Origin: Spirochaetia bacterium
GTDB lineage: Bacteria; Spirochaetota; Spirochaetia; DSM-2461
Direction: 5' to 3'
Assembly (NCBI GenBank): GCA_963668315.1
Contig: OY764216.1
Location: 1,632,001 to 1,696,000, forward strand
DNA length: 64,000 bases
The position numbers and the translations under genes are program-made. The notes below the pieces were generated by a model. That model made no database searches. It saw nothing but the letters and a program-made list of their open reading frames with translations, and was not told where the DNA came from. This document shows positions 18,924-39,334 of this stretch, piece by piece (position 1 is the first letter of the stretch; each line of letters opens with the position of its first letter).

Positions 18924-19054
18924 GCCTCGCCGGCTGTCGGAGATACGCCCGGGGGGAACCGTGATCCCCGTACGGGGACTTTTGAGGAACAAATAATGAA
19001 TAATCAATTCAATCCGGCAATAAAATCTGCGGTGGCTGTCCTTATCCTGGTGAA

Positions 19055-19095: not shown

Positions 19096-19143
19096 TCTAT
19101 ATTTATAGTCTATTGACTTTATGTTTCAATTAGTAGTATGGTA

Positions 19144-19580: not shown

Positions 19581-19594
19581 GACTGATATTAAAT

Positions 19595-19626
19595 AAAAAA
19601 AAGGTCACTTATGGTGACCTTTTTTT
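19595..19626. terminator. Bidirectional intrinsic terminator
   Basis: A-tract, aggtcac-ttatg-gtgacct, T-tract. Confidence 0.75.
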
Positions 19627-19637
19627 ATGGAGAAATA

Positions 19638-19796
19638 ATGGGAAAAACGAACTACAGTTATGAAAAAAGAAAGCGGGAATTGGATAAACAGAAGAAGAAA
19701 GAAGAAAAGCTGAAGAAAAAACAGCTAAAGAAAGAGATGGTTGATAATCCTGGTGAATTTGAGATCATTGAAAAAACCGAAGATGAAGAAGAGTAG
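19638..19796 (+). CDS. Small Lys/Glu-rich protein
   Basis: MGKTNYSYEKRKRELDKQKKKEEK with ggag RBS. Confidence 0.6.
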   Translation: MGKTNYSYEKRKRELDKQKKKEEKLKKKQLKKEMVDNPGEFEIIEKTEDEEE

Positions 19797-20176
19797 GCCG
19801 ATTCATTATAGCGGTGCACTCGTTTTATAGCTTCTGATAATTATGGCAGAAGACTCCAGGGAGAAACCCTGTTTCGAAAGGCTATATCTTAAGCGTCCGT
19901 GAATTAGCTTGTCCAGACACATCGAAAACAAAGGCTGAATCCAGCCAAATGGTTCCAGGAAAAAGTTCATCAACATGCCCTGGCTCCCATGAAAAATGAT
20001 ACTCCTATGGGGTAATATCTCTCTTCTTTCCATTATGTCTCTCTCGGAAAAAATTATTAAGCCGATCAATGCTGAATTTCCAAAGAAAGAATTAATCAGA
20101 CTGCTGAAGTAGAAAGGAAAGTCTGTTCGGCCCAGTCCACTTCAGCTGCCTGTTTGTCAAATATCCCGTAGAAAAC

Positions 20177-21394: not shown

Positions 21395-21407
21395 TTCGGG
21401 TTATCCT

Positions 21408-22301: not shown

Positions 22302-22386
22302 TGGTAAAAAAATATCCGAAGGCCGGGAGAATATCGTCCTAAATGATAATTCAGGACTCTTTTTTTGAATAAAAATGAGAAAGGGT

Positions 22387-22437
22387 TAAAAAAAAGCACC
22401 CTCCGAAGAAGATGCTCTATATATTATTACCCGTAAG
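22387..22437 (-). repeat. Orphan copy of the tRNA-Leu trailer and terminator
   Basis: aaaaaaaagcaccctccgaagaagatgctctatatattattacccgtaag, identical to the copies near 27770, 31590 and 39195; no tRNA fragment attached. Confidence 0.9.
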
Positions 22438-22450
22438 ATTTTCAGAATGA

Positions 22451-22743
22451 TCAACGATTTTTCCAACCTTCTGGATTTCTTTTCGCATGAAAGACGGCTA
22501 AAACAAGAATTGTATAATCCTGAATCGTATAGATGATCTGATACGGGAATCGTCTAATCAGAATTTTTCTATAAAGTTTATGGACAATTGGGAACATAAG
22601 GGGATTTCGCTTAATCATCGAAAATCCGTTATCAAGACAATTCAGAAATTCCCGGTCCAGATAGAGCGCTTTGCTTCTATACCATCGAAGAGCCTCACGG
22701 ATCTCATTCGAGCTTCCGATGTTATGACCAATTCATATTTCAT
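22451..22743 (-). pseudogene. RelE/ParE-family toxin with one frameshift
   Basis: Hand translation MKYELVITSEAR|NEIREALRWY...IKRNPLMFP...RRFPYQIIY...VLAVFHAKRNPEGWKNR*. Confidence 0.82.
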
Positions 22744-22752
22744 TAAAAGGAC

Positions 22753-22970
22753 TTATTCCTTTTCAAGTTCAGATCTAAAAGAATCCCAGTATAGAGCTGT
22801 CTCGGGATTATGTTTATAATGTTCTACCCTTTGCTCCAAATCCTTAATTTGAACATCGGTCAGGTTTGAGGTTTCTCTGGAAGCAGCTATTGTATCCCAT
22901 ATATCTTCCACAAGAATTATTTTTCTTCAATAGTCATATTGGATAGAGCCTGTTCAATGACAGTATTCAT
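22753..22970 (-). pseudogene. Addiction-module antitoxin (TIGR02574-like) with one frameshift in an A-run
   Basis: MNTVIEQALSNMTIEEK|IILVEDIWDTI...DLEQRVEHYKHNPETALYWD. Confidence 0.8.
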
Positions 22971-23415
22971 ATTACATCTCCCTTGTATTATTATAACAGC
23001 AAAGGTTGATGTTGACCATATCCGTCGATTAATTCTTTATTCTTAGGTAGGGCTAGGCATAAATCCATTTATATTCACCTCCCTATGTCCAATAACAGTT
23101 GCTATTCAAGATATACCACGGATTTCAAGATCGCCGTGAAACAGGGAATCGCCGATTTTTCCCATGTAAAGGAAATCCTCTATTCCCGTACAGCAACGGC
23201 GGTTGCTCTTTCTTTGGCTGACAATGCCCGGTATTAAAGATGAGAATTATACGATAAAACCCATTATGGAGAGTCAGATAAGCGGCAGCTACATGGAACA
23301 GCTCTGTACTATTAATGATGAAAGCGGGGAGCGTGTGGGTTATGTGGTTATTGAACTTCTTCCCGGTATTTATGAGGAATAATCAGATATTCCATTAAAA
23401 ATAGGATAAAATCCA

Positions 23416-23763
23416 ATGGCTGGTATAAAACTACTTGCCTTTGCAACTCTCGCGAGTGATCTTGAGCGATACAGGGGATTCTACTCCTGTTCAAATGCTA
23501 TTCTTTTTCTTGATGCCTATGGTCATGATGCGGGAGATTCAGTTCTTATATCAATCGCCGGTGTCATTAACAATCATATGCGCAGTTCGGATGTTATAGC
23601 TCGTAGTGGAGGAGAGGAAATCAGAGTTCCCGCTTCACTCGGGATAACAACGGTCAATGATTTAGAAGAACCTCTGGATCTGTTGTTGAAGCGGGCCGAC
23701 GAAGTTCTATATAAGGTAAAAGAAGAGGGAAGAAACTGCTGTCGTTATTCCATTGGAAAGTAA
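23416..23763 (+). pseudogene. Internally deleted GGDEF remnant
   Basis: YGHDAGDSVL, ARSGGEEI joined directly to ASLGI, RADEVLYKVKEEGRN; the central part is missing. Confidence 0.75.
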
Positions 23764-23806
23764 TAAACGAAATAATTCTGGCGCAGCAACTAATAATGGC
23801 CAGTTC

Positions 23807-25231
23807 CTATGAAATAAGTTTATTCTTCTCCTCCTTAATCTCACTCGCTTTTTTCTTTAGGATGAAGCCCAGAGGGACCGCTATCATAACAATGACAGCC
23901 GATATCTTATAGATACTGTTTACAGCCTCTGTGAATGAGTGGGATATGTCCCTGCCGGCCTGGGCATAGCGGGATATCAGAATGGTAAGCATGGAAGCAA
24001 ATATACTCAGGGAAAGGGATGCCAGCGCCTGGCGTATCCAGTTATTCAGGGAAGAGGCATGACTGCTCTCTTCCCTGGGGAGAATCTCCATCCCCGCATT
24101 GGTCGCCGGAATGATGGAGAGGGAAATACCCAGACTCCTTATTGTCATCCAGAGAATGGAGTAACCCTCCGATGTTACCGGTGTTAGCTCTCCCATTTTC
24201 CAGGAGCCCAACGCTATTAATATCGCCCCGGACAGAATAAGTGTACGGGGTCCTGTACGGTTGTAAGCCAGTCCGACCAGGGGCATAACCAATGCGGTAA
24301 TAAGCGAGGCGGGCAGGAGAACCAGCCCGGCTTTAAGGGGAGACATCTGCTGGACATTCTGCAAAAACAGGGGGGTAAGCAGCGAACCGGCATAAAGGGA
24401 AATCGTTATAATGCTCGTAATAATGACGCTTATGGTAAAGCGGGTATATTTGAATATCCGGAGATTCAGAAGAGGATGGGGACATCTTAATTCCTGAATG
24501 GTAAAGAGGGCCAGCAGGATCAATCCAAAGACTATAAGCCCCAGCGTTCGGGGCGAGGCCCAGCCCCATTTCGAACTGCTGCTGAAGGCAATCAGCAAAG
24601 CCAGGCTGGCCAGTATTCCGGTTGTGAATCCTATAATGTCAAAACGTTTGCTCTCACCCACTGTGTAATAGGGCACGTGAAACTTAATGAGGACGGCTGT
24701 GACTATTCCCAAGGGGATATTGAAAAGAAAAACAAACCGCCAGCTGGAAAGACCGATAAGCCATCCACTGAGAGTAGGACCGACGGCGGGGGATAGCATG
24801 GCCGCCAGACTCCAGAGACTGATGGCCAGGGCATGTTTTTCACTGGCGATGTTTTCATAAATAATCGTCATCGTGACAGGTGCTATCAGTCCGCTGAAGA
24901 TCCCCTGGAGTATTCGGAACAGAATCAGTGTTTCGCTGTTCCAGGCCCCAGCGCATAAAAGGGAAGAGAGGGTAAAGCCGAGCAGCGCATGGAAGCAGAC
25001 TCGCTGATTACTGAATTTCCGACCGAGAAATCCGGTTACCGGAGCGACTACTCCGGCGGCCAGCATGAATCCTGTAAGCGTCCAGTTTATGGTTCTCAGG
25101 TTCGAATTGAACTGCTCCATTAAGGCGGGCAAAGCGATATTCATAGTACTGGTACCGATGAATGCAAGGAAAGAGGACAGGAAGATTGCCAGCATCATCG
25201 GACCGGATTTATTTGTATTCTGTTTTGTCAT
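23807..25231 (-). CDS. DHA2 (EmrB/QacA-like) MFS efflux pump
   Basis: 14-TM pattern; MNIALP, GPTLSGWL, WRFVFLFNIPLG; gggagg RBS before MTKQN. Confidence 0.88.
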   Translation of the reverse strand: MTKQNTNKSGPMMLAIFLSSFLAFIGTSTMNIALPALMEQFNSNLRTINWTLTGFMLAAGVVAPVTGFLGRKFSNQRVCFHALLGFTLSSLLCAGAWNSETLILFRILQGIFSGLIAPVTMTIIYENIASEKHALAISLWSLAAMLSPAVGPTLSGWLIGLSSWRFVFLFNIPLGIVTAVLIKFHVPYYTVGESKRFDIIGFTTGILASLALLIAFSSSSKWGWASPRTLGLIVFGLILLALFTIQELRCPHPLLNLRIFKYTRFTISVIITSIITISLYAGSLLTPLFLQNVQQMSPLKAGLVLLPASLITALVMPLVGLAYNRTGPRTLILSGAILIALGSWKMGELTPVTSEGYSILWMTIRSLGISLSIIPATNAGMEILPREESSHASSLNNWIRQALASLSLSIFASMLTILISRYAQAGRDISHSFTEAVNSIYKISAVIVMIAVPLGFILKKKASEIKEEKNKLIS

Positions 25232-25379
25232 AATTAAGACCTCCCTCATCGAGTTTTTTATAGAGTTTACTTCCCGTTGTTTCAACCATTAAAATCCAAC
25301 ATAATGAAAGATATTAAACATATTAATAATATCTGACGGATTACTTTCATAAAGTAAAAAATTGACTTAGAATAAAAGT

Positions 25380-25943
25380 ATGAAATCAGACGGCAGAGTT
25401 CGGTATACTAAAATGATGATTCGTCATTCTCTCCTGAAACTTCTGGAAAGCAAAACCATAAACAAAGTGACGGTGACTGATATATGCACCCTGTCTGAGA
25501 TTAACCGGGCTACCTTTTATTATCATTACCGCGATGCCTTCGATTTGTTGAATCAGATACAAGAAGAGATGTACGAAGAGATCAGGCAAGCGTCCCTTAG
25601 CCGGGATAAGGAAGACCGCTACAGTACGGGATACGCCGTTTTATCCATTGTCAGCAGGCATGCCGATCTTTTCCGCATCCTTCTTTCTGAGAAGGGTGAC
25701 AAAAGCTTTCTGGAGAAAATAGGAGAGCTGAACAGGGAACAGTGTCTGTCTGAATGGCAGCAGTTGTACCCCCGGGCGAGTAAGCAGGAACTCAAAGCCG
25801 TCTTCGCTTATATTTCCCATGGCAGCCTGGCGATAATAGAGTCCTGGCTTAAGGACGGAATGAAAACCGGCGTCCGCGAACTTGCCGAATTCCTCCATGA
25901 AATGAACGATAGAAGCCTTTCTCTTCTTGCTGATCATCCGTAA
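25380..25943 (+). CDS. TetR-family regulator
   Basis: DGRVRYTK...VTVTDICTLSEINRATFYYHY; divergent from the efflux pump. Confidence 0.9.
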   Translation: MKSDGRVRYTKMMIRHSLLKLLESKTINKVTVTDICTLSEINRATFYYHYRDAFDLLNQIQEEMYEEIRQASLSRDKEDRYSTGYAVLSIVSRHADLFRILLSEKGDKSFLEKIGELNREQCLSEWQQLYPRASKQELKAVFAYISHGSLAIIESWLKDGMKTGVRELAEFLHEMNDRSLSLLADHP

Positions 25944-25988
25944 GAAACAGTTCCGGCCTGTTCTTGCCGCAGACCGGGACTGTTATAT

Positions 25989-26978
25989 TTAATCGACGGG
26001 CATTAACTTTCTGTTCTGTCGGATAAGCAGGAAAAGGTAAGCGAAATGGATGGCGGAAACCACAAGGACCGGCACATAGGCGACAGTGGTTCCCCTCGCA
26101 AAGGCATAGACTATATCGTAAATATGCAGGATCACCGGAATGGCGAATAATATAAGTCCGTCCTGCTTCAGATCCATGGGCTTCATTTTTTTTCTGAATG
26201 CGATAAGCAGAGCTATGGCAAAGGCAAAGTTGAGGCAGAGTATCAGAAGCTCGCTGGTAAGAGTTGACTGGGAGGGATCGATCTTTCCGAACAGCAGAAA
26301 GCGTCCCAGAGGATTCCCGAAGCTGAACGCCTGAATGATTCCGGCTATAAAGGGATATAAATTCCCGATCCAGGACAAAGAGGAGGGAAGCTTTCTGTAG
26401 AGCCAGTCCCCGACCATAGCGTAAACCGTGTAATAAAACATCAGATACATCCAGCCGCTGTAATTATAGAAGGGGATACCGAAAAATCCTCCCTCATATC
26501 CCGGATCGGTCCAGTTCCACTGTCCCGACATAATGCCGTTTCCCAGGGCGCCGGGGTGGGTCAGGTTTATCGAATCGGCGACCGTCTGGGGAAGGGCGAC
26601 CCTATCGAAAACGGCGGCCGGGTCAATCGTCATATCCTGTACCGAGCCGAACAGGCCTACGACAAAGGGAATGGCCCAGACGGGGAGATTCAGTTTCTTC
26701 GCCAGATTGAAAGCGGCATACCATATGGATGCTTCAAGAAGCAGGATTTCCAGGGGAACGCCACCAACCATAATGATTCTTCTGAAATCATAATAATAAG
26801 TGTGAACCACATTGGTACCAACATTTTCAAATATGGCCGCTCCCAGCATAAAGCCGAAAAGTTCGAGAATCCTCAGGAAGGAATTCTCCTGTTTTACCGC
26901 ATGGCTTACTACAATAAAAAATACTATAAACGAAAAGAGTTCCACCAGGAACCAACTGACGGGTGTTCCAAATATCAT
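25989..26978 (-). CDS. Integral membrane protein, carotenoid-biosynthesis/DUF422-like
   Basis: FEN, GGVPL, DMTIDP, W.W, FFGIPFYNYSGW motifs. Confidence 0.6.
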   Translation of the reverse strand: MIFGTPVSWFLVELFSFIVFFIVVSHAVKQENSFLRILELFGFMLGAAIFENVGTNVVHTYYYDFRRIIMVGGVPLEILLLEASIWYAAFNLAKKLNLPVWAIPFVVGLFGSVQDMTIDPAAVFDRVALPQTVADSINLTHPGALGNGIMSGQWNWTDPGYEGGFFGIPFYNYSGWMYLMFYYTVYAMVGDWLYRKLPSSLSWIGNLYPFIAGIIQAFSFGNPLGRFLLFGKIDPSQSTLTSELLILCLNFAFAIALLIAFRKKMKPMDLKQDGLILFAIPVILHIYDIVYAFARGTTVAYVPVLVVSAIHFAYLFLLIRQNRKLMPVD

Positions 26979-27157
26979 TTGATACCTCCAGGTATTTTGT
27001 TATGGTACAAATATAATTTATCCGAACCAGTATTCACACAACATCGCCAGGCCGGGTGTCGATTCTGCAATCTACAATTGCATTGTAAGTGTAGATTTCT
27101 TATTATATATAGGGAGGTGGACTTATCGAAACGGCAAAAAGAATAGAACAGGCTTTT

Positions 27158-27694
27158 ATGGATCTCCTCGTTGAGAAAGAGAACTTCGAGTCTCTGTCCA
27201 TCGTAGAAATATGCACGAAAGCGAATATACACAGGACTACTTTTTATCTTCACTTCCAAGATAAATTTGAACTGTTGGATAAATGCCTACTGGATATTCT
27301 GGATGTTCCGGAATCGGAAGTCATTCTCTATACAGATTTATTATTGGAAGAGAAAATCTTTAATCTTATGAAATATGTCGCTTTGAATTGCAGCAGACAC
27401 AGCGATTTCCTGCTTCTGATTTTACAGAACGGCAGGTATCCCTATTTTTATACCCGGTTTCTCAAAGAGCTGGAGGGACAGATAGGAAAACAGATAGAAC
27501 GTATAAACAGGACTATGCTCAAGTCGGGCGGGAAAATGAATAAATACTGTAATGTCTTTCTCAGTTCGGCTTTGTTCGGTTCTATTCTCTTCTGGGCGGA
27601 GAATGGGGAACAGGAAGATATTGATAGTTATTGCAGGACCATCACAAAGTATATCATTGCGACCCTATATGCAGAAAGAGAATCTGCCCTGTAA
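27158..27694 (+). CDS. TetR-family regulator, probably frameshifted at its 5' end
   Basis: HTH SIVEICTKANIHRTTFYLHF; in-frame upstream IETAKRIEQAF has no start codon, while GTG-GAC-TTA (MDL) at 27117 is out of frame. Confidence 0.75.
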   Translation: MDLLVEKENFESLSIVEICTKANIHRTTFYLHFQDKFELLDKCLLDILDVPESEVILYTDLLLEEKIFNLMKYVALNCSRHSDFLLLILQNGRYPYFYTRFLKELEGQIGKQIERINRTMLKSGGKMNKYCNVFLSSALFGSILFWAENGEQEDIDSYCRTITKYIIATLYAERESAL

Positions 27695-27718
27695 ACGTTC
27701 TTTCTCCGTGAGGTCTTG

Positions 27719-28007
27719 AAATAAAAGGGTCAATAAAGGCATCAATCCCGAAAATGGGACTAAATAAAAAAAAGCACCCTCCGAAGAAGATGCTCTATAT
27801 ATTATTACCCGTAAGGGTTAACGTTGCGGTAGAGAAGACTTGAACTTCCACGGTCTTGCGACCACTAGCCCCTCAATTCAGGGTACAGACTTATGTTGTT
27901 CATCTAAGGTCATAGGGAGCTGTATTTCATGTCTTATGTGGTTCTTTATCAATATAAGGCTTCTGAGCTTATATAATAAAGGCGTCGATACTGGTGTCTG
28001 TTAGTAA
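27719..28007 (-). repeat. att junction A: arm, terminator, tRNA-Leu 3' half (27825-27876), arm
   Basis: 52-bp exact tRNA 3' copy ending at the anticodon loop; 12-bp tandem repeats at 27723-27746 and 27978-28001. Confidence 0.92.
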
Positions 28008-28289
28008 TCATATGATTAATCTCGATTTTAGGTGGTTTACATCAACATTACTACCGAAGTAGTGCATGAAAGCGTAAAAAGTCATAGCACGCGGAACTAT
28101 AGATTTTCTTCAGGTCGGCGACAACTGCCTCGGTATGTCCTACTCCTTCACCTTTCCCATGAAATCCACCGAATCCCACTTCTTCTCAAAATTCCGCATT
28201 CCCTTCATCGCGTCCCACCGTTAAACAATCGATTTCAGTCTGACTGGTATGATAGCTTATAATGGATTTCGTAGATAGGGAGGGGCCGC

Positions 28290-30254
28290 TTAATCCTCTG
28301 CTGCCAGAATATCGCGCAGCAGCCGGCTCAGTTCGCCGTACATGAAGGGTTTCTGGATAAATCCGGCCAGACCGGCTTCTTTCATTTTTCTGATATTCTC
28401 ATCTTTCGTGAACCCGGAGGATATGATCACTTTGCATGCCCCGTCGATCTCCTTCATTTTGAAGAACGCATCGGAGCCGTTCATCTCGGGCATCAGCATA
28501 TCCATGATAACGAGATCTATTAGGGCATGTCTCTCCTTGAATAGTTCCACCACCTCCCTGCCGTTTGACGCCAGGGTAACGGAGAATCCCATTCCCTTGA
28601 GTATTTCCTTGCCAGTCCGGCGGATCAGTTCTTCATCGTCCGCCAGAAGAATATGCCCTTTTCCGGAAAAGGAGATGTCCTTCGGGGAGGAAGAAACCGG
28701 TGAATCCTCCGAACAGGGCAAGTAGAGGTGGAAAACGGTTCCCTCTCCCTCTTCGCTGTAGACATTTATGGCGCCCCTGTGGTTCTCTATCGTCGCGTAA
28801 ACCGTGGACAGGCCTAGACCCGTCCCCTTGCCCTGTTTTTTGGTCGTATAGAAGGGTTCGAATATTTTCCCTATCCTTTCGGGGGGAATTCCCGTTCCCG
28901 TGTCCCTGACTTCGATCTCAATAAAGTTTCCCGGGGAGATCTCAAAGGGGACAGACCGGCAGTAATAATCGTCAAGGAAGATATTCTTTGTCGAAATCCG
29001 CAGTTCCCCGCCGTCCGGCATGGCATGGGACGCGTTGATTCCCAGGTTGAGGAGGGCATTCTGCAGGGAAGCCCCGTCCCCCAGAACGGTAGACTGCTCC
29101 GCTTTTTCCGACAGATGAATCTCAATCCTTTTATCTATCGTCCTGTTGAGCAGGGTCATCATATCCCGGATAATGTCATGAACCGGGACAGGTCTCGTCG
29201 ATATTTCCGTTTTCCGCCCGAAGGTGAGCAGTTTGTTCGTCAGATTGGCCGCCTGGGTAGAGGCGTCGAGAATCATATCGACGAATTCCAATCCCGTCCT
29301 GTCCAGGTTCCTCTCGGGACTCTGCAGCAGCTGGGCCGCCCCGATAATTCCTCCGAGCATATTGTTGAAGTCGTGGGCCACCCCTCCCGCAAGCTGTCCT
29401 ATGGCATCCATTTTCTGGGACTGTCTCAGAAGATCATCCATTTTTCTGCGTTCCGTGATATCGATGAAGGATATGATAACCTGAATGATCTCCCCCCTTT
29501 CATCGAATTCCGGTTCCGCGTTGACCAGAACCCAAACCGGTTCACGGCTTTCCTCCTTTATGATTCCGACAATATAGTTTCGGATGGCCTTTTTCTGCTC
29601 CAGCACAAGGGATATGGGATATTCGGTAACGGGCATCAGAGTACCGTCGTCCCTGATGAAATGCCAGCTCTTGTCATCGGGATGCTTTCCCTTGATGGAA
29701 CTGTGGAGAAAACCGAGCAGCTGATCGGCCAGGGGATTGGTATCGATAATGTTTCCACGGCCGTCATGGAGAATTATGGCTGTCTGGACCTTGTTTATGA
29801 GGGATTTGTATTTCTCCTCGCTTTTCCTCAGGGTCCTGAGGGTCCCCGTGTGGGCATGGATCTGTTCCTGCAGGCTCAGGTTGCTCTTCTCCAGATCTTC
29901 GTTCGCCCGGCTCAGTTCGGCAGTCCTCTGGTCAACCAGCTGCTGCAGATTGTTTTCCTGTTCCGATTTTTCAAGGAGAATGGCAAGGATTTGTATGGCG
30001 TTATGGATCAGATTTTCCGTTTCCCGGTCCAAGGTTCTCTCCGAAATAAGGGAGAGGTATCCGTAGGTTTTTTTACGGGTGCATACTTCCATTTCCAGGC
30101 CCCCGTTCCTCCTTTTCTCCGAGAGCCAGCTGAAGGAGGCGGGCTGGAAAATGTTGTTCATGCTTTCGATAAAGAGCCGGATTATCCCGTCCTTGCTGTT
30201 CAGCTGGGAGATCGTCGTTGTCAGAAGGAACAGTTCCTGGGCGTAGTTCGGCAT
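28290..30254 (-). CDS. PAS-containing hybrid histidine kinase/receiver
   Basis: H-box GQLAGGVAHDFNNML, NLGINA, DTGTGI, GTGLGL; receiver ILLADDE...DMLMPEMNG...KP. Confidence 0.93.
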   Translation of the reverse strand: MPNYAQELFLLTTTISQLNSKDGIIRLFIESMNNIFQPASFSWLSEKRRNGGLEMEVCTRKKTYGYLSLISERTLDRETENLIHNAIQILAILLEKSEQENNLQQLVDQRTAELSRANEDLEKSNLSLQEQIHAHTGTLRTLRKSEEKYKSLINKVQTAIILHDGRGNIIDTNPLADQLLGFLHSSIKGKHPDDKSWHFIRDDGTLMPVTEYPISLVLEQKKAIRNYIVGIIKEESREPVWVLVNAEPEFDERGEIIQVIISFIDITERRKMDDLLRQSQKMDAIGQLAGGVAHDFNNMLGGIIGAAQLLQSPERNLDRTGLEFVDMILDASTQAANLTNKLLTFGRKTEISTRPVPVHDIIRDMMTLLNRTIDKRIEIHLSEKAEQSTVLGDGASLQNALLNLGINASHAMPDGGELRISTKNIFLDDYYCRSVPFEISPGNFIEIEVRDTGTGIPPERIGKIFEPFYTTKKQGKGTGLGLSTVYATIENHRGAINVYSEEGEGTVFHLYLPCSEDSPVSSSPKDISFSGKGHILLADDEELIRRTGKEILKGMGFSVTLASNGREVVELFKERHALIDLVIMDMLMPEMNGSDAFFKMKEIDGACKVIISSGFTKDENIRKMKEAGLAGFIQKPFMYGELSRLLRDILAAED

Positions 30255-30259
30255 TGCAG

Positions 30260-30919
30260 CTATGGTTTATTCAGGAACTGGGGGGCATTTTCGGCAAGCC
30301 AGATATCCGGTTCCACGAAGTAGGGGTTTACCGTGAAGACTCCGCCGTTGATGGAGTAGGGATGGGTGCGGAGTACATTCATAAGCATCTCCCCGGATAT
30401 TTTCGAGGTATTGTAGAGGCAGAGGCTTATGACGGTTTTGTCCTTGACGAAATAGTTCAGCCTTGATTCATAGGCGAACAGATGCTCCACCCCTTTTACC
30501 TTCTGCAGGGCCCAGACCATCTCCGCCACGGCCCGCAGGTTGCGGGGGCCTTCCGCCTGGGTGTAATCGAAGTACCCGTTTATCGCCGTATCCATCAGCC
30601 AGGGATCGAAGACCCCGTCGGGATAGTAAAGCTCGGAAGCTTCTTTCACATCAAGGTCCCCGGGATTGTCCCGGTCGGCCCGGCACAGGGGGCAGTGGGC
30701 GTGATAGGTATCCCAGAAATGCTCTTCCGTCTGTTCGCTGTGTATATATATCTGACGGTCCTCATCGGCATAGCCCCGGCAGAGATAACCGGAAATAATC
30801 TCGTCCCGTTCCTTTTCCGTTTCGTAGAGGCCGCATATATGGGTTCCCCAGTTACACGAGTATTTTCCGATTCCCAGCATGAGTTTTTTCATTTCCGAAG
30901 TCTTTATATGCATGGACAT
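30260..30919 (-). CDS. MEDS (DcmR-like) sensory domain protein
   Basis: WGTHICGLYET, LRAVAEMVW, YESRLN, LCLY, LRTHP. Confidence 0.8.
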   Translation of the reverse strand: MSMHIKTSEMKKLMLGIGKYSCNWGTHICGLYETEKERDEIISGYLCRGYADEDRQIYIHSEQTEEHFWDTYHAHCPLCRADRDNPGDLDVKEASELYYPDGVFDPWLMDTAINGYFDYTQAEGPRNLRAVAEMVWALQKVKGVEHLFAYESRLNYFVKDKTVISLCLYNTSKISGEMLMNVLRTHPYSINGGVFTVNPYFVEPDIWLAENAPQFLNKP

Positions 30920-31040
30920 TCCCTCCCCGCCGGTTCCTATGGATCTTCTCTTGAAGTTTAGTCTCTCATCATAGTGAAGTCAAATTTCAGGGGAGGACAG
31001 TAATCGGGGAATTGGCTTTCTTTCCGGGATAAAGAAACAC

Positions 31041-31223
31041 TTAGGACTCCAGCTGCAGAATATCATGGACCTGCCGGGAGAGTTCGAAGGATGAGAAAGG
31101 CTTCTGAAGAAATCCGTCCACTCCCTCTTCGCCGTCCGCGGCCTGACGTGTCTTATCGCCGCACCATTCCAGAATTTCAACGGCCAGCTGACGTATCAGC
31201 CTGTCGTCATCCACCACGAGCAA
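31041..31223 (-). pseudogene. Internally deleted receiver-domain remnant
   Basis: LVVDDD...AADGEEG joined to VDGFLQKPF; the phospho-Asp segment is missing. Confidence 0.7.
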
Positions 31224-31225
31224 TC

Positions 31226-31368
31226 CCTAGCTTATTGGCTTCTTTGGAGAGAGCAACAACGCATCCATCATTATTGCTGAGTACTACGACAGGTTTATCT
31301 TTAAGATCAGGTCTAAATACCTTTTCACAGCTGGCATAGAATGAGTTACAATCGACAAGAGCAATCAT
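31226..31368 (-). pseudogene. umuC: N-terminal fragment of UmuC-like Y-family polymerase
   Basis: Hand translation [49 protein letters not shown]. Confidence 0.88.
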
Positions 31369-31474
31369 GAAGTTTTGCAATGATGGATAATATCATTCAC
31401 TACCCCCCAAACCTCAAAATCCATCTCTTCCGTAATTTTGATTGGAGTATAGTTTTTGTTGCCTGGATATAGCC
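31365..31474 (-). pseudogene. umuD: C-terminal fragment of UmuD/LexA-like S24 peptidase
   Basis: [35 protein letters not shown] overlap with umuC. Confidence 0.8.
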
Positions 31475-31828
31475 GGGGTTCAGGTCATGTTTATTCAGGA
31501 TTCCTAAAAGGTAAAATCCTCCTTTTTCCTCTCTACTCCCGAAAATAAAAGGGTCAAAAAAGGCATCAATCCCGAAAATGGGACTAAAAAAAAAGCACCC
31601 TCCGAAGAAGATGCTCTATATATTATTACCCGTAAGGGTTAACGTTGCGGTAGAGAAGACTTGAACTTCCACGGTCTTGCGACCACTAGCCCCTCAATTC
31701 AGTGTACGACCTTATGTTGTTTTTATAGAGTCATATAGGGCTATATTTCAGGGTTTATGTGGTCTGTTTTTCATATGAAGCTTCTGGGCCTTTATAATAA
31801 AGGCGTCGATACTGGTGTCTATTAGTAA
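31475..31828 (-). repeat. att junction B: arm, terminator, tRNA-Leu 3' half (31646-31697), arm
   Basis: 31475-31697 reads identical to 39080-39302; 31698-31828 is colinear with 27877-28007. Confidence 0.93.
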
Positions 31829-32003
31829 ATGAAAAGTTATCATTTGCATTCTTAATGATTCTTCCAGGGTGCAATGATATATCCAATGACTGATAGTTAT
31901 CCTTCATCAAAAGAACGCTTTGCTACTTTTAGCCTTATTCAAGGATATGGATAGGGGAAGTTTCCAATTTATGCTATGAACGGGATAAAACGAACCGGAT
32001 CCA

Positions 32004-32879
32004 CTATATTTGTGAATAAACTGTGGTCTTATCTCTCCCGTTTTCTTTGGAGCGGTACAAAGCCTTGTCGGCTTCTTTTATTAACTCGAATATATCACAT
32101 CGATCGGAAATGATGGATATACCGATGCTGATCGTTAGATTGTATTCGCTGCTGAAAGCTTCCTTCACATTCATTCTTATTCTTTCTGCGAGATCGAGCG
32201 CTTCCTCCTCTTCCGTATGGGGAAGAACTATTATGAATTCTTCTCCTCCGAATCTCGTACAGATATCAAGTTCTCTTAAATTCAGGAGCAAAATCCTGCT
32301 GACTTCCATGAGGATTTTATCTCCGGTATTGTGCCCGAAGTTATCATTAATAGACTTGAAATGATCAATATCTATCATCAACAGTGAAAAAGGGGTCTTG
32401 TAGCGGATATAGCGCCGAATCTCAATATTGAGTACTTGCATGAGGTGCTGCCTATTGTATAGTTTTGTCAGCGTATCTACCGATGAGAGCTCCACAATTT
32501 TCCCGAGAAAGGATTCACCGATTATTTTTGGGGCTAGAATCTCCTTTTTTATATTCGTCAGATAATCGAGGGTTGCAACCGTGATTTCCACATTTCTGTT
32601 AAGCAGGCGGCTCAATTCTTTCTTATGGCGGAGAATCTCATTCCATATAGAAAAAGCCCTGTTCTTTTCAAACACTTCATAAGTCAAATGGAAAAGGACC
32701 TTTACGTAAAAATCTCCTTCCGATTCACTGAGTAATGTTTCAAAAAGCGCCTTCTCCTCATTCGTTTGGAAACGATCTCCGGCTATCCCGGAAATAAACT
32801 CCTTTGTAAAGACTTTATCGCTGATTATATCAAATAATTTACGGCCATCGTCGTTCTCATTTTTCTTCAAATAATCCAT
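32004..32879 (-). CDS. Cytoplasmic diguanylate cyclase
   Basis: DTLTKLYNR, DIDHFKSIND, RELD I-site, RFGGEEF. Confidence 0.92.
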   Translation of the reverse strand: MDYLKKNENDDGRKLFDIISDKVFTKEFISGIAGDRFQTNEEKALFETLLSESEGDFYVKVLFHLTYEVFEKNRAFSIWNEILRHKKELSRLLNRNVEITVATLDYLTNIKKEILAPKIIGESFLGKIVELSSVDTLTKLYNRQHLMQVLNIEIRRYIRYKTPFSLLMIDIDHFKSINDNFGHNTGDKILMEVSRILLLNLRELDICTRFGGEEFIIVLPHTEEEEALDLAERIRMNVKEAFSSEYNLTISIGISIISDRCDIFELIKEADKALYRSKENGRDKTTVYSQI

Positions 32880-33370
32880 CCTGTTGAAACAGATTCAATT
32901 CCATAGCTTGTCATCAGGGATTCCTTCAAAGAACTCATAGAATACTTGATTCACATGACGAAGCTCCCCAAAATATTGGTCTCATCCAAGGAGGAAATAT
33001 TTCATAACTATATATTTACATCCCTGACTCTAGCTCTTTTAATTGTAATCATTACCATTAAATAATGCAACCATAGTGCGTCCCGAGTCAATATAGCCTT
33101 ATGCCATATCAAAGGTAGTGACAGTTAGTAGAGAAGCTAACGGTTAATTCTGATGATATCGGGATCACTAATCAGAAACCTGTATATATTCTGATAAATA
33201 AAACTATCAGCGGATGTATCGGGGAATTGAGAAGATCCTTGGGGCTGAAAAAAAAGCTCAGAAGGTATTTAGAAAGTCTTGAATTAAGATGGTTGCATCA
33301 CAATCCGTATTGCCGATCCAGCGCTTGAGGGCATAGAAACTACCTCCCGTGACTCACGGATTCGGTATGT

Positions 33371-34228
33371 CTAAAGATGAAGCACTTTTTTCCAGTCCGT
33401 ATCGCGGAACAGGATGGCATGCGTCATGAGGGCTGCGAAAGCCAGAAAGGAGAAAATGATAAAGGTTATGAGCGACCATCCGGAGAAATCCGTTGAAAAA
33501 TCCAGGGCGACCAGCATAAGAGACAAAAGCAAAAAGAATAGGCTTACAACATTCAGTCCCCTGCGCCTGACAATCCCCGTAAGAAAAATAAAAAGGGAGG
33601 CGGGAATAAGCGCCGAGACGGCAATCGGGGACCAACTTATCTTCCCGGAAAGTATGTATTCCAGGGCGATGAGGAAGAGTGAGCTAATGAGGAGGGAGAG
33701 ACCGACGGCATTCTGCCATTTTCTCCTTGCCTTGCCCACGTAAAGCACGAAAATGTCCGCGGAGACCGCTCCCGCCAGGATGATCTGGAAATCCCCGGAG
33801 AGCAGGAAATCCCAGGGATACTGCTTCCTGAACAGCATGAACCAGCAGAGGATTATAAGGCCGGCGGAGTTGACAAGCAAGCCCGGCCTCCTGTAAGAAA
33901 GCACTCCCGCCAGGGCCATCCCGAAAGCGGCCGGCAGGGAAATCATCACATAATAGGACCAGGAGATAAGGCCGTTTTGGATATAATCCAGTAACGGGGT
34001 AACGAGGAGGGGCAATAGGCAGGCCATAACCGCCAGAGAAAGGAACAGCGACCTCTTCTGCCGGAGAGTGAGGGAGCGGTGCATCTTTCGGGCCTTCACC
34101 GAATCGGCGGGATAAATCCCTTCTGATTTCTGGGGATTCCGGACCTCCCCGGGGATGGCCGTATCGCAGAGGGGGCATTTTTCCAGGCGGTCTTCAACTT
34201 CGACTCCGCATCGCGGGCAATAGGGCAT
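33371..34228 (-). CDS. Zinc-ribbon membrane protein (DUF6320-like)
   Basis: MPYCPRCGVE...CPLC followed by about 8 TM helices. Confidence 0.75.
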   Translation of the reverse strand: MPYCPRCGVEVEDRLEKCPLCDTAIPGEVRNPQKSEGIYPADSVKARKMHRSLTLRQKRSLFLSLAVMACLLPLLVTPLLDYIQNGLISWSYYVMISLPAAFGMALAGVLSYRRPGLLVNSAGLIILCWFMLFRKQYPWDFLLSGDFQIILAGAVSADIFVLYVGKARRKWQNAVGLSLLISSLFLIALEYILSGKISWSPIAVSALIPASLFIFLTGIVRRRGLNVVSLFFLLLSLMLVALDFSTDFSGWSLITFIIFSFLAFAALMTHAILFRDTDWKKVLHL

Positions 34229-35506
34229 TCACATCCTCCCCGAATTCAATAAATTCGTCATGATACTTACGTAAACGCCCTCTTTGCGTAGCGCCGCAAA
34301 AAAAGCCGCTTCCACTTCCTTCCCCCATAATGTACTCCCGAAGAACAGGGAGATACTGTCCCTGTAGCCGATGGCCGTCAAATTAATCCGGCCGGAGTTC
34401 CTGGGCGGAATGATCTCGTATTTTTTAACATACTTTCCCATCTTAACAGGCAGGCGGACCAGGCCGAGATTGGAAAAGCTCATGGAGTAGGTATTCTCTC
34501 CCATCCTCCTGTTGATCCATTTGAGAATCGGCTTCTTGAGCAGGAGGGGGAGAACGCGGGACAGGACATTCGCTTCGCCCCGGATGTTGCGGGCTATCTG
34601 CATCTTAAGGTAATTGATATCCATTTCGAGTCTCATGTAATCCCTTACCCGGCCGATGATATATTCCAAGGTGGTCCGCCCCAGTCTCGGATCAACGGTG
34701 GGCTCTACGGTCAGCATGAAGTTCCTCATTGTTTTGGAAGGGAAGAACTGCCTTACGTCGACGGGGATAGTCAGCGTAACGGGCTTCATGCGCTTTTTCG
34801 TCCGCTCCAGGTCACATAGTACCTTAAGAAGCACTGCGCTCAGATAGACTCCTATGGTCACGCCGAAAGCCTCGGCGCGGATCTTTACATCCCCTGTACT
34901 CAGGATTCCCTCGATAATACGGTATTTCGGCGGCTTGAGCGGTGCTCCCCTTAGCTGCGCCGCTCTCCGGCACGGCTTCGCCCGGGGGATACTTCTGTCG
35001 AAATTCCTTTTGTAACCGTCTGAATACTCCTCCGGATCGCAGGAATCTTCGCAATCCAGCACCATCCCGTCGGAAGAGACATCTTCTCCCATGATTTTCA
35101 AATATTCCAAAATCAGCCCGTTCAGAAAAGTTATGCCCGATTTCCCGTCGGCCAGCAGATGGGACGCCTCAAAGGCGATGCGATGGCGATAGGCGATAAT
35201 TCGGAAAGGAAGGACATCCCTTCTTTTGAAGGGGATATACTGGCAGGGCGACTGGCTCTCCCCATGAACGAGGGGCAGGGTATCGACCTTGTCCAGATAG
35301 TACCAGAAGACACCCTGCTTCAAAGTGACTTGGTAATAGGGGCATCGCGCCATCATATTCCGGGCCGCCTCTTCGAGTGCGCCTATCCGGACTGGCTTAT
35401 CCATGAGAGCCGCAATCCGGAATATGGTGGTTCTCTCCTTTGAAAGAAGAGGAGGATAAAGCTTCCCCGCATTATCCAGGCGGTAATCGTAAAATTGCTC
35501 TTTCAT
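34229..35506 (-). CDS. Alcohol acetyltransferase/condensation-fold acyltransferase
   Basis: RLDNAGKLYP, HxxxDG (HLLADG), PVDVR, FSNLG. Confidence 0.78.
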   Translation of the reverse strand: MKEQFYDYRLDNAGKLYPPLLSKERTTIFRIAALMDKPVRIGALEEAARNMMARCPYYQVTLKQGVFWYYLDKVDTLPLVHGESQSPCQYIPFKRRDVLPFRIIAYRHRIAFEASHLLADGKSGITFLNGLILEYLKIMGEDVSSDGMVLDCEDSCDPEEYSDGYKRNFDRSIPRAKPCRRAAQLRGAPLKPPKYRIIEGILSTGDVKIRAEAFGVTIGVYLSAVLLKVLCDLERTKKRMKPVTLTIPVDVRQFFPSKTMRNFMLTVEPTVDPRLGRTTLEYIIGRVRDYMRLEMDINYLKMQIARNIRGEANVLSRVLPLLLKKPILKWINRRMGENTYSMSFSNLGLVRLPVKMGKYVKKYEIIPPRNSGRINLTAIGYRDSISLFFGSTLWGKEVEAAFFAALRKEGVYVSIMTNLLNSGRM

Positions 35507-35678
35507 CCTATGGCTGCCCCTTTAATTATATATGATCCCCCGGATTATTACCATCGGCCGTGATGAAAAACGCCGTTCCCTATCCCCCGTGCCTCCCATG
35601 GGGAGAAAATCGGCACGGATGGCCGAAAGAAGCGCGATCACGCCGGGAGTATGGTATAATGGGGGAAAGGATGAAAAT

Positions 35679-35900
35679 ATGAATAGAATTAAAACCGATA
35701 ATGAACTCAACACCATTGCCTTGAAAGTAGTGGATATTGCCGGTATCGCGGAAACCTTGAAAACAGCATGCGAAAAAGTCATTTACAGATATAACAAGGG
35801 AACACCCCTGAACCTTTCCGAGATTGAAAGGAGTATCCTGCTGAAGGCTAATTATGGTGAAATGATTATATCAGACCAACCCGACAGATGGCTTCTGTAG
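35679..35900 (+). CDS. Small hypothetical protein
   Basis: TATAAT and aagga RBS precede MNRIKTDNEL; 3' end overlaps the EI-like gene. Confidence 0.4.
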   Translation: MNRIKTDNELNTIALKVVDIAGIAETLKTACEKVIYRYNKGTPLNLSEIERSILLKANYGEMIISDQPDRWLL

Positions 35901-37553
35901 GCGCGAGTGGCGTACGGCCTCTTTGATTAAGGGGATAAGGGGAGGGGCTACGCTTAACGTTTCTATGCCGCATGAAAGGAGCTTTTCCACGTTCTGCGGC
36001 TGACCTGCCAGTTCCCCGCATACGGAAAGGGGCATGTCCGGAACGTCTCCCCGGGTAAGGCCGATCAATCTGAAAATGACTTGGGAAGAATCATTGAAAT
36101 AGGTCTCCACCGCCCCGTTCTCGCGGTCGGCGGCATAGGAATACTGGGTAAGGTCATTCGTTCCGAAACTGAGGAAGTCGGCATATTCGCCTATGAGCTT
36201 CGCAGACAACGCGGCGGCGGGGGTCTCGATCATGGCGCCGAGGGGGGGCGGGGATGCCATGTTTTCCTCGGAGCACAGCCGGTCGAGAATTTCCCTTACC
36301 CGGGCCATTTCTTCCGGCAGGGAAACCATGGGCACCAGAATGCGGATGTCAAATTCCAGGGACAACTGGAGCAGAGCTCTCATATTGGTTTTCAATAGCT
36401 CCGGGTATTTTAAAAGGAGCCGTATGCCGCGCTGCCCCAGTGCGGGATTCGATTCGGCCAGAAAACTCATAAACGCCAATTGTTTGTCGCTTCCGAGATC
36501 AAGAAGCCGAACGTTGACGGGCAGGCCTTTGGCGGAACTCAAGGTTTGCCTCATTTCCGAGAGCAGTTCGCTGACTTTCGGCGGAGCGATCCGCCCGAGA
36601 TAGGCCCGCTCCATCCGATAAAGACCTATTCCATCGGCACCGTTTTCCATGGCCCGCTCCGTGTCCTCGGGGCATCCGACATTCGCCAGCACGGAAATCC
36701 GTAAACCGTCCTCCGTAACCGCCGGGCCGGCGGCTTTGAGCCTGACAATCTCCCGGTTTTGCCTGTTCTCATCCATTTTACCACGGAAAATGCGGATCTG
36801 CTTTTCCATAGGGCGGATAATGACTGTCCCCTCATCGGCGTTAACAAGCGCCGGATCTTCCTCGGAAAAGAGGGACTGGATACCGGATATGCCGGATATG
36901 CAGGGTATGCCCATCTCGCGCAGAAAAAGGGAGGCGTGGGAGCCGTAGCTTCCGTATTCAAGGAGAACGGCAGATATGGAACGGCCTGAAAGAAAAACCG
37001 TATCGGAGGGGAGAAGGCGGGAGATAGCCAGCACGCTATGCTGCGGGATTTCGTCGAGGGGGTGGACTGTTATTCCGGCAAGGGCGTTTGAAAGGCGTAT
37101 CGAAACGTCCTTCATGTCTTCTCCCTTGTCCCTTGAGATTTGGGAATCCATTAAAAGAAACCTCTTTTCCCAGCGCAGGAAGACGGTTTTCACGGCGCTG
37201 CTCGCGGTGACGAGGTTATCTTCTATTTCCCTTTTCAGCTCATTCCTTAAGGAAGTATCCTCCACTATCAGCTTGTGGATCCCGAAAATACTGGCCAGTC
37301 TCGCATCCACTTGCTCTTCCACGCGAACGGCTAGAGCGCATAGATCATCGGATACCTTTGTCGTAGCCTCATCAAGCCGGTAAAATTCTTCTTCGATATC
37401 ATGGCGCTTTATGTCGGCGGGCACATCAATCGGCCCCAGAATATTGCGATGGGTGTGAACAAGCCCTTCCACAATTCCCGGGGAGAGGGGAATCCCCTTA
37501 ACTATACATCCCTTTTTCTGTGTCAACGGCTCATCCTTTCCAGTCTGAATCAT
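35871..37553 (-). CDS. PEP-protein phosphotransferase (PTS enzyme I-like paralogue)
   Basis: SPGIVEG, phospho-His motif GSYGSHASL, GIGLYRME, NPALGQRGIR, GAMIETP, SFGTNDLTQY, VCGELAG; start uncertain (37553 or 37604). Confidence 0.88.
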   Translation of the reverse strand: MIQTGKDEPLTQKKGCIVKGIPLSPGIVEGLVHTHRNILGPIDVPADIKRHDIEEEFYRLDEATTKVSDDLCALAVRVEEQVDARLASIFGIHKLIVEDTSLRNELKREIEDNLVTASSAVKTVFLRWEKRFLLMDSQISRDKGEDMKDVSIRLSNALAGITVHPLDEIPQHSVLAISRLLPSDTVFLSGRSISAVLLEYGSYGSHASLFLREMGIPCISGISGIQSLFSEEDPALVNADEGTVIIRPMEKQIRIFRGKMDENRQNREIVRLKAAGPAVTEDGLRISVLANVGCPEDTERAMENGADGIGLYRMERAYLGRIAPPKVSELLSEMRQTLSSAKGLPVNVRLLDLGSDKQLAFMSFLAESNPALGQRGIRLLLKYPELLKTNMRALLQLSLEFDIRILVPMVSLPEEMARVREILDRLCSEENMASPPPLGAMIETPAAALSAKLIGEYADFLSFGTNDLTQYSYAADRENGAVETYFNDSSQVIFRLIGLTRGDVPDMPLSVCGELAGQPQNVEKLLSCGIETLSVAPPLIPLIKEAVRHSRLQKPSVGLV

Positions 37554-37560
37554 GGGAGAT

Positions 37561-37815
37561 TCAATTCCCTTCACGCCCTTCTTCCCCAGGGTGGGCATCG
37601 TCATGTTGGTGAAGCAAATACATGGCGCCGCCCCAAACTAATCCTGACACGATAATAATCAGAACGCCGATCCAGGGAACAATGCCCAGAAGATATAGGG
37701 CCAGGCTGAATGCGCCGAACAAAACCCCCGTTATGGCAAGAAAAGTTAACAGCCATACCCATAAGGGTTTATCCGAAAGGAAACTGATGATTTTGTTATC
37801 TGTGGAATTATGCAT
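37561..37815 (-). CDS. Small two-TM membrane protein
   Basis: aggagg RBS, two hydrophobic helices, His/acidic tail; directly upstream of the EI-like gene. Confidence 0.65.
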   Translation of the reverse strand: MHNSTDNKIISFLSDKPLWVWLLTFLAITGVLFGAFSLALYLLGIVPWIGVLIIIVSGLVWGGAMYLLHQHDDAHPGEEGREGN

Positions 37816-38228
37816 AAGAACCTCCTAAGGTTCCGTTATGAAGATAGGAGGACGCGTCCGTTTCGGGTAGGGGAACCAGCTACGTTCTCTCCGCATAAAC
37901 CTATCACTCGCAAATGTATGTTGCTCAGAATTATTAGTAAGGCTTTAGCAGGGCAGGCGAAAGTTGCAAGCATGTTGTATAATGCTTGTCTCCTTCATGT
38001 TCCTATGGGAATGGTAGAAGAAATGAAATAAATTAGTTCCTAAGGATATATTAGAAATTTAACTACAGAAAACACAATAAATCAATAGGAATTGATATTA
38101 TTACCCGCAAAGGTTTCGCAGAGCCCATTTCTTTTAGAGCCATGCCAGCGAACCCGATGCGGATAAGGTGGGTGAGATATACCATGCCAGTTGACAGCCG
38201 GAGCTTCGCCTGGGCATGGTATGGAAGT

Positions 38229-38489
38229 TTATCTCCTGTTAGGATTCGACTCGGAGATGTTGACCTTTAGATTTCTGCCAAGAACTTCCTTACCATTAAG
38301 GGCCGATATCGCCTTGGAAGCTTCTTCACTATCTGACATCTCGACAAAACCGAATCCCTTGGAACGGCTTGTCTCCCTGTCCAAAATGATCTTGACGGAA
38401 TTGACTTTGCCGAATTCGTCAAAAAGGTTTTGAACATCAAACTCACTCGTTTCCCAACTCAGATTTCCCACATAAATATTACTAGACAT
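38229..38489 (-). CDS. RRM (RNP-1) RNA-binding protein, paralogue of 19311-19580
   Basis: MSSNIYVGNLSW...SKGFGFVEM. Confidence 0.95.
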   Translation of the reverse strand: MSSNIYVGNLSWETSEFDVQNLFDEFGKVNSVKIILDRETSRSKGFGFVEMSDSEEASKAISALNGKEVLGRNLKVNISESNPNRR

Positions 38490-38686
38490 ATTGTCTCCTT
38501 ACACCGGCATCAACCGGTCTTGTTAATCAAGAGAATAAATCAAAATAATAAATGACGCGGAAAAGTATAAAGGATACTGAAAGTGAATACAATCGAGATC
38601 TTATGTTTAATAACGAATCAAAAAGAATAAATGAAATAAACTTGCTTGTTGAATAAGACACTACCTTAGTTCATGCTTATTGTCAA
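38490..38686 (-). promoter_or_regulatory. Promoter (TTGACA-17-TAGTGT) and conserved U-rich leader of RRM gene 2
   Basis: Colinear with 19113-19310. Confidence 0.7.
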
Positions 38687-38746
38687 TACGGATTATCCTC
38701 TGACTCGATTGAAAAGGAGGTCACTTTAAAACTGCTTCCAGATACC

Positions 38747-39070
38747 TTGGGCAAATATATTAAACTATATAAGAGTATCAAGTTGTATAAAGAAGATATG
38801 GTAAATCAGTATTTATCAAAAGAGGGAGAAATCCCAAATTGTTTTTTTCCAACTCTAGGTTTGTGGAATTCTTCAAATGATTTAATTCATGAGAATGAGA
38901 TAATCTCAGATATCAGGGAGTTATATAGTTTTATCACATCAATACAAGATTATGGAAAAGACAGAGAAGCCTTATTGTTTTACAAAAAGAAACTAAGCTT
39001 GGATTTTAATAGAATATCTGCAAGAGATTTAATAAGTATCCCTCTAATTCATGGTTACAATCCATGTTAG
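38747..39070 (+). pseudogene. AT-rich ORF, probably the 3' fragment of an unknown gene
   Basis: No good start codon or RBS; ends 9 bp before the att arm. Confidence 0.35.
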
Positions 39071-39079
39071 AAGTATAAA

Positions 39080-39302
39080 GGGGTTCAGGTCATGTTTATT
39101 CAGGATTCCTAAAAGGTAAAATCCTCCTTTTTCCTCTCTACTCCCGAAAATAAAAGGGTCAAAAAAGGCATCAATCCCGAAAATGGGACTAAAAAAAAAG
39201 CACCCTCCGAAGAAGATGCTCTATATATTATTACCCGTAAGGGTTAACGTTGCGGTAGAGAAGACTTGAACTTCCACGGTCTTGCGACCACTAGCCCCTC
39301 AA
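39080..39302 (-). repeat. tRNA-proximal att site: tRNA 3' half, trailer, terminator, arm
   Basis: 223 bp identical to 31475-31697; terminator gcatcttc-ttcg-gagggtgc followed by a T-tract. Confidence 0.92.
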
Positions 39303-39334
39303 GCTAGCGTGTCTACCAATTCCACCACTACCGC
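39251..39334 (-). tRNA. tRNA-Leu(GAG)
   Basis: GCGGTAG acceptor stem, D-loop TTGGTAGAC, anticodon arm CTAGC-TTGAGGG-GCTAG, long variable arm GGTC-GCAA-GACC, T-loop GTTCAAGT; CCA not encoded. Confidence 0.97.

Follow-up and report, generated by a model that had tools for sequence, protein, structure and literature searches.

What built the array of gene blocks behind a leucine tRNA gene in this spirochaete, and are its members cassettes in traffic or the remains of something larger? The window, that is, the whole stretch of 64,000 nucleotides analysed here, covers G000:C1:1632001-1696000, where G000 is the source genome (Spirochaetia bacterium, a single contig of 5.62 Mb), whose host is taken to be a free-living spirochaete. 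In it an intact tRNA-Leu(GAG) gene is followed by three consecutive units, none of which carries an integrase gene. The original prediction, drawn from the letters alone, took them for small non-autonomous cassettes gathered into an integron-style capture array. We consider it quite probable that the array is instead a stack of three integrase-less units that are deleted, partly chimeric remains of larger islands inserted one after another. For comparison we used 38 genomes of the family (labelled G000 upward), many of them incomplete.

Junctions of the array

The tRNA-Leu(GAG) gene lies on the minus strand at 39251-39334 and forms attL of the array, with a putative crossover in its 7-nt loop at 39296-39302. 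Sequence comparison placed two exact 52-bp copies of its 3' half on the same strand, at 31646-31697 (junction 1) and 27825-27876 (junction 2). Both reproduce tRNA positions 33-84 letter for letter, starting at the anticodon loop TTGAGGG as had been described. Across the 5.62 Mb of the genome this 52-mer has 4 occurrences, far above chance: the tRNA itself, the two window copies and one copy outside the window. The conserved flanks that had been reported on both sides were also recovered: downstream, the tRNA and copy 1 are identical over 223 bp and agree with copy 2 at 97.5% over 158 bp, and the upstream (right) arms of units 1 and 2 are 79% identical over 125 bp. Each internal junction runs in the order right arm, 7-nt loop, remainder of the tRNA, terminator-like hairpin and left arm. 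The displaced tRNA 3' fragment thus opens at the 7-nt loop and has core-like symmetric flanks, a feature of the anticodon-loop class of islands. These repeats support the earlier proposal that the junctions are likely att-type sites, with a tyrosine integrase crossing over inside the anticodon loop. Upstream of the tRNA we found hisD and purH-like genes, and no intI beside the entry site.

The units measure 7,605, 3,821 and 5,439 bp (units 1, 2 and 3), in agreement with the predicted sizes of about 7.6, 3.8 and 5.4 kb; the delimitation needs correcting at the far end, where unit 3 is closed by a 50-bp terminator piece and not by a tRNA copy. We scanned 62 window open reading frames (ORFs) with Pfam, picked as likely genes from 122 ORFs of at least 90 aa plus some short ones, and none encoded a recombinase, relaxase or phage protein; among the unit ORFs no relaxase or type IV secretion system family was detected. 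The 14 tyrosine recombinases of G000 gave a best tblastn match to the window at E = 0.013, and PF07508 serine recombinases were not found in G000. The claim that the 64 kb holds no such ORF therefore stands, with the correction that mobile-element genes are present: an IS256 transposase (3668-4861) and an insertion sequence (IS) stub (23085-23237). The units are without an integrase, as had been stated, so any movement would require one from outside.

Unit 1 matches the end of a large island in another genus

The block at 31646-38692 (minus strand) matches over 7,049 bp, at 98.8% identity, the right end of a 52-kb island in G007, a genome of a different genus. The shared genes encode an RRM protein, a phosphotransferase system (PTS) enzyme I-like protein, a 425-aa protein of unknown function, DUF6320 and GGDEF proteins, and the match includes the right (P) arm (31698-31820, minus strand; arm repeat at 31802-31820, 123 bp before the loop), which is 98% identical to the arm of the G007 island. 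Because other G007 DNA matches G000 at only 66-71% identity, except for one mobile-type block at 85%, the shared block must have moved recently. The original prediction had named deletion remnants of large integrase-bearing islands as the finding that would speak against it, and for unit 1 this is what we found.

The G007 island spans 51.7 kb. It starts at tRNA-Leu(GAG) and stops at a displaced 3' half, which is of the tRNA type that G007 itself has, and on sequence these boundaries have the pattern expected of attL and attR. It encodes a 382-aa tyrosine integrase (Int, L048:11968-13116), ParA, a second Xer-like recombinase, a protein that weakly matches replication initiators and a retron-type reverse transcriptase whose gene is broken. 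A 93-aa ORF behind Int, without a database match, was read as a putative excisionase-like protein. The reverse transcriptase is St85-like and frameshifted, and lies with a 94-aa helix-turn-helix-like gene upstream of it between attL and the integrase (L048:9993-11303). G007 has two full tRNA-Leu(GAG) genes (L047:2243-2328 and L048:9718-9801), both with promoter-like upstream sequence; G041 (L066) also has two, the separations being 27 kb in G007 and 8.5 kb in G041.

The other end of unit 1 is less close to that island. Its left (P') arm (39080-39250, minus strand), made of a terminator-like hairpin and an arm repeat (39155-39173) 129 bp from the loop, is 100% identical to the left arm of unit 2 and only 85% identical to that of the G007 island. 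Between arm and shared block stands a fragment of an unknown gene (38693-39070, plus strand), which matches residues 85-172 of a 394-aa protein at 37% identity and is likely an internal piece of a larger gene lying between two putative deletion junctions. A word search returned no longer homologues of this frame. HMMER gave 4 matches, of which the single-stretch P0039 was compared and three multi-stretch, repeat-like ones were set aside. A shared recombination hotspot at arm position 171 was considered and is not needed, up to 48 bp past that position in unit 1 being unassigned. The 13-mer in which the shared left arm ends was likewise rejected as an IS end, its 1 other exact copy in the genome standing in an unrelated context.

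A second copy of 6.7 kb of the block (31994-38692) lies at G000:4487701-4494397, within a tRNA-Met island. At 96.2% identity it is more distant from unit 1 than is the G007 copy over that stretch (98.9%).

Units 2 and 3 are broken at their ends

Unit 2 begins with a left arm at 31475-31645 (minus strand; arm repeat 31550-31568, 129-bp spacing to the loop). Joined directly to it are a 3' fragment of umuD (model positions 83-115 of 115) and a 5' fragment of umuC (1-52 of 422), at 31207-31474 on the minus strand, so that genes are broken at the left junctions of both unit 1 and unit 2. The remaining cargo (28290-31199, minus strand) consists of a receiver-domain stub, next to the umu fragments, and two intact genes, for a MEDS sensor protein (30260-30919) and a hybrid histidine kinase (28290-30254). 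Relatives of these two genes elsewhere are only 68-70% identical and have no arms nearby in the two loci checked. The unit ends in a right arm at 27877-27999 (minus strand; arm repeat 27981-27999, 123 bp before the loop). Another umuD/umuC remnant with similar cut points lies just downstream of tRNA-Arg(CCG) in G003 (L127:2661-3360).

Decay is worst in unit 3, the farthest from the tRNA. Its left arm (27719-27824, minus strand; arm repeat 27726-27744, 132 bp from the loop) is followed by the cargo (23416-27694): TetR, a 329-aa protein of unknown function, a second TetR, a major facilitator superfamily (MFS) transporter and a GGDEF fragment. The right end (22451-23237) holds the IS transposase stub on the plus strand and antitoxin and ParE genes on the minus strand. 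G003 carries a 2.6-kb unit at tRNA-Leu(CAG) whose right end matches this segment at 88% identity, and relative to G003 both toxin-antitoxin genes are frameshifted. The alignment holds until the G003 right arm begins. There G003 continues into right arm and core, and the window jumps, across a short imperfect repeat ending in AATAATA, to the 50-bp terminator piece (22388-22437, minus strand). A deletion of about 200 bp probably took the right arm, core and tRNA half, and unit 3 is a fixed remnant.

An arm motif and its candidate integrase

Both arms carry the direct repeat TGAYRCC-N4-TYGAYSCY, which we take to be arm-type integrase sites of the kind bound by lambda- and Tn916-type integrases. 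In the fetched loci, where 41 loop cores were listed, the repeat was scored upstream of 15, and its distance was 123 or 124 bp in 15 of 15. The downstream spacings (n = 21) were 122-123 bp (7), 132-134 bp (12) and 129 bp (2, these being window units 1 and 2). An identical arm type stands at the anticodon loops of tRNA-Leu(GAG) and tRNA-Leu(CAG) and at the T-loop of a tRNA with a CAT anticodon, and each of these three targets has NCTAGTG or a close variant after its loop. A search for the right-arm pattern gave 24 matches in 13 of the 38 genomes, one of which proved to be a left arm; the reversed control gave 0. G001 has a different integrase at the same tRNA, and the arm motif is absent from its junctions. 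In G005 (L063:1600-2800), toxin-antitoxin pairs behind tRNA-Leu(GAG) are flanked by sequences that resemble the right arm but contain an internal insertion and lack a tRNA copy.

We looked for an integrase gene adjacent to the same arms elsewhere, as the original prediction had suggested, and found one in the G007 island (the 382-aa Int) and one in the metagenome locus L134, a 9-kb stretch made up of tRNA-Leu(CAG), one arm, cargo, an intact Int, toxin-antitoxin genes and another arm. The clade of G007 Int accounted for 27 of the 36 matches listed, at 53-95% identity, and its catalytic residues are invariant across 19 aligned members. Of 39 metagenome loci, 32 were scanned for the arm repeat and 7 short, weak matches were left out; the repeat was present in 4 of 5 loci whose integrase is at least 50% identical to Int (43 kb) and in 0 of 27 with distant integrases (165 kb, many short). 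This co-occurrence suggests that the G007-type, 380-aa clade is likely the cognate integrase of these arms. Near full-length members occur in 2 of the 38 family genomes, G007 and G042 (where the first 30 residues are missing), and N-terminal stubs of different lengths occur in arm-bearing loci of G020, G041 and G006. No close member was found in G000, where the best match has 28% identity (122.5 bits), and a clade hidden Markov model run on all six frames of units 1-3 gave no integrase trace. We therefore rejected a resident integrase for these arms: none of the 14 PF00589 matches in G000 falls inside the window, and the best match to the clade is the one at 28% identity.

Proposed serial insertion and decay, and the alternatives

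We propose that an integrase of the 380-aa clade would insert islands successively into the anticodon loop of tRNA-Leu(GAG). The incoming attP (right arm, 7-bp loop core, tRNA 3' half, left arm) would recombine with the intact gene, and each insertion would restore that gene and shift older islands outward. Later deletions would strip integrase and backbone and leave arms and end cargo. Units 1 and 2 could still be excised or carried along once an island with the cognate integrase arrives. What we infer here is where the crossover lies, which integrase is cognate, in what order the events took place and that units 1 and 2 keep this excisability.

Several results weigh against this account of insertion and decay. 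A simple internal deletion of one island would not explain unit 1; given the mismatch of its left arm with that of the G007 island and its identity with that of unit 2, a chimera or a tandem double insertion must be assumed. No larger parent of unit 2 or of most of unit 3 was found among the 38 genomes. No relaxase was detected in the scanned ORFs of the G007 island, many of which match no family, and VirB4 (PF03135) was found in none of the 4 genomes searched. We also delimited 22 arm-bounded units by hand (3 of them in the window; some boundaries are approximate, and the loci were chosen by arm or integrase matches): an intact integrase was present in 2, a stub in 2 and no trace in 18, which is more than passive decay obviously predicts. 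One integrase-less unit of 2.5 kb is moreover whole in both G020 and G045, at 94% identity against 77-78% in the flanks. These two results, together with the disparity between a clade member in 2 of 38 genomes and arms in 13 of 38, and with unit 3 cargo pieces recurring at about 98-99% in a sequencing run from a second study, would suit former deletion products that have become a non-autonomous population, with arms under selection and moved singly in trans by rare visiting islands. We regard this as unlikely. The G020/G045 unit does occupy different positions, first in the G020 array (with an added IS) and second in that of G045, but over half of it is IS sequence. The likeness also does not stop at the junction, the next block being shared at 91% for 1.1 kb, and co-transfer of a tandem therefore fits better than single movement. 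A search of the other 37 family genomes, in which a first look scored 7 candidates per genome, turned up none of window units 1-3 whole, unit 3 is without a right core, and the 129-bp left-arm spacing of units 1 and 2 appears in no other scored junction. It is likewise doubtful that in this family a rare integrase clade serves a large standing population of integrase-less units that keep both arms at three tRNAs (the Leu-GAG and Leu-CAG anticodon loops and the CAT-tRNA T-loop). If it did, visiting islands would excise, re-order and export units between genera, and such arrays would be a distributed cassette-exchange network without a resident recombinase. Assembled contigs cannot show excised circles, since along the 171-bp arm a unit-1 circle would have the same joint sequence as junction 1; among the contigs none was listed as a circle joint.

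Integrons have an intI gene at the entry site and attC-bounded cassettes, usually of one intact gene each. The array resembles them in being an ordered series of accessory genes behind one entry site, and differs in having no linked intI, multi-gene broken blocks and double-stranded arm-type att sites. A resident integrase that captures and reorders cassettes could be sought in a 459-aa protein (G000:3447090-3448469), right behind which, with its 209-aa partner, stands the fourth exact 52-mer with a left arm. However, this integrase abuts tRNA-Pro(GGG) and is 24% identical to G007 Int, the right-arm motif is missing before the fourth Leu copy, and no attC-like repeat family was reported: a general repeat scan, made with no attC model, showed only tRNA-plus-arm repeats. 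We judge such a platform very improbable. The predicted capture array of small cassettes is not supported either, as unit 1 matches an island end, genes at the left junctions of units 1 and 2 are broken, unit 3 has no right att core and no integrase of the likely cognate clade was found in G000. That the repeats are an assembly artefact, also named beforehand as a possible objection, is hardly credible. No single contig reaches across the entire array, and the best runs (X1 and X2, two runs of one sample) may be from the source sample itself. Single contigs nevertheless cover 22408-27794 and 27852-31504, and so units 3 and 2, with zero differences and at the single-copy depth of the flanks (83.5 and 92.2 against 85.3 and 66.6 in X1; 222 and 223 against 226 and 224 in X2), the flanks are not the same from copy to copy, and arrays of this architecture recur in G007, G020 and G045. 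The 6.7 kb duplicated elsewhere in G000 appears in the contigs as two variants at higher depth. In another run, X5, a contig of depth 4.4 links the MFS end, via 40 letters, to a tRNA 3' piece; this is weak and was not used. Most of units 1 and 2 had no cover in X5, which carries no weight either way.

Relation to known systems

Island accretion is an established concept, and the array is of a known kind. Cis-mobilizable elements (CIMEs) are described as remnants without integration or transfer genes that keep their att sites and arise by integration, decay and accretion (PMC5704250, PMC7563491); in CIME tandems the most decayed member is farthest from the target gene (PMC7563491). With the CIMEs, ICESt1, ICESt3 and the streptococcal tRNA-Lys islands the array shares deletion remnants of 1-13 kb stacked at one target (PMC5704250, PMC7563491), and also kept att sites, no recombination or transfer genes and the worst decay farthest from the target. 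No functional recombination gene and no conjugation or mobilisation gene was found in units 1-3. Sites on both sides (core plus both arm repeats) are kept in units 1 and 2; unit 3 has lost its right site. Deletion from a larger element is seen for the right 7 kb of unit 1, and the fragments in units 2 and 3 suggest the same for them. The array differs from CIMEs in that no intact island stands in the tandem, one unit has lost an att site, and the G007 parent has Int, an Xis-like ORF, Par and Rep-like genes with no relaxase or VirB4 detected. Units 1 and 2 are thus CIME-like, with a parent that is only a putative integrative and conjugative or mobilizable element (ICE/IME). The shared tandem DNA of G020 and G045 is an indirect hint of mobilisation in cis, the route by which CIMEs would move after accretion with an active element.

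Dehalococcoides ssrA islands are also tandem islands behind one RNA gene, 15 of them being reported without an integration module and read as cis-mobilizable; they have a tmRNA target, a serine recombinase and 20-bp repeats, against a tRNA anticodon loop, a tyrosine integrase and 52-bp repeats here (PMC3146451). Prochlorococcus tycheposons are alike in serial tRNA insertion, older elements pushed outward, partial tRNAs and fragmented integrases; they have another host and other hallmark genes, and are defined by an integrase of their own, absent from the window units (bioRxiv 10.1101/2020.12.28.424599). The anticodon-loop (A) class of Islander likewise involves a tyrosine integrase and a 3' tDNA fragment that opens at the anticodon loop, but its rule for a tandem asks for an integrase in each member, so that the window array would be missed (PMC4383910). 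The integrase gene proper to this class is absent from the window units and present in the G007 island. Use of both an anticodon loop and a T-loop by one clade was considered as a novelty and rejected, since integrase subfamilies are already reported to use symmetric tRNA sublocations as a class (bioRxiv 10.1101/2020.11.02.365908).

What is new here is the arm motif, the likely cognate integrase and the parent-remnant pair; a literature search that lacked most subscription journals returned nothing relevant on this host group or the arm motif. Together the parent, the remnant in another genus, the motif and the candidate integrase show how islands accrete and decay outside streptococci, in a natural case of unusual completeness. 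Whether such remnants are mobilisable in trans or dead becomes directly testable, and the integrase with its att pair could also be turned into a tool for site-specific integration in free-living spirochaetes. Arrays of this sort escape island finders that depend on an integrase.

Other tRNA arrays and neighbouring sequences

Outside the window, G000:C1:3446261-3448636 holds tRNA-Pro(GGG), the 459-aa integrase, its 209-aa partner and then the fourth tRNA-Leu(GAG) 3' half. This copy has a left arm, and no right-arm motif was found before it; it may have arisen by insertion at a look-alike site or may mark a deletion junction. The tRNA-Pro(GGG) gene has its own 52-bp copy 113 kb away. The integrase-partner gene pair recurs at three tRNA-Met junctions in G000. 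A tandem tRNA-Met(CAT) array with 47-bp and 23-bp copies (G000:C1:4482848-4649123) holds a 97% identical copy of 13.6 kb of G007 island cargo. The far end of this array has a triple arm repeat, and genes close to its tRNA resemble, by eye, a nucleotidyltransferase defence cluster.

Two RRM-protein genes lie in the window, one inside unit 1 (38229-38489) and the other past the end of the array (19311-19580); their 417-bp surroundings are 75% identical. Synteny did not fix the right boundary of the array: matches to window positions 3000-22390 within the genus are only patchy, and the genes downstream of the tRNA in G001 and G003 are scattered across G000. The IS256-family element (3569-4918) has at least 13 near-identical copies elsewhere in G000. 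A stretch of about 105-120 bp inside a methyl-accepting chemotaxis protein (MCP) gene (about 6385-6500) is repeated many times, at about 80-87% identity, in G000-G003 and is probably the conserved MCP signalling domain.

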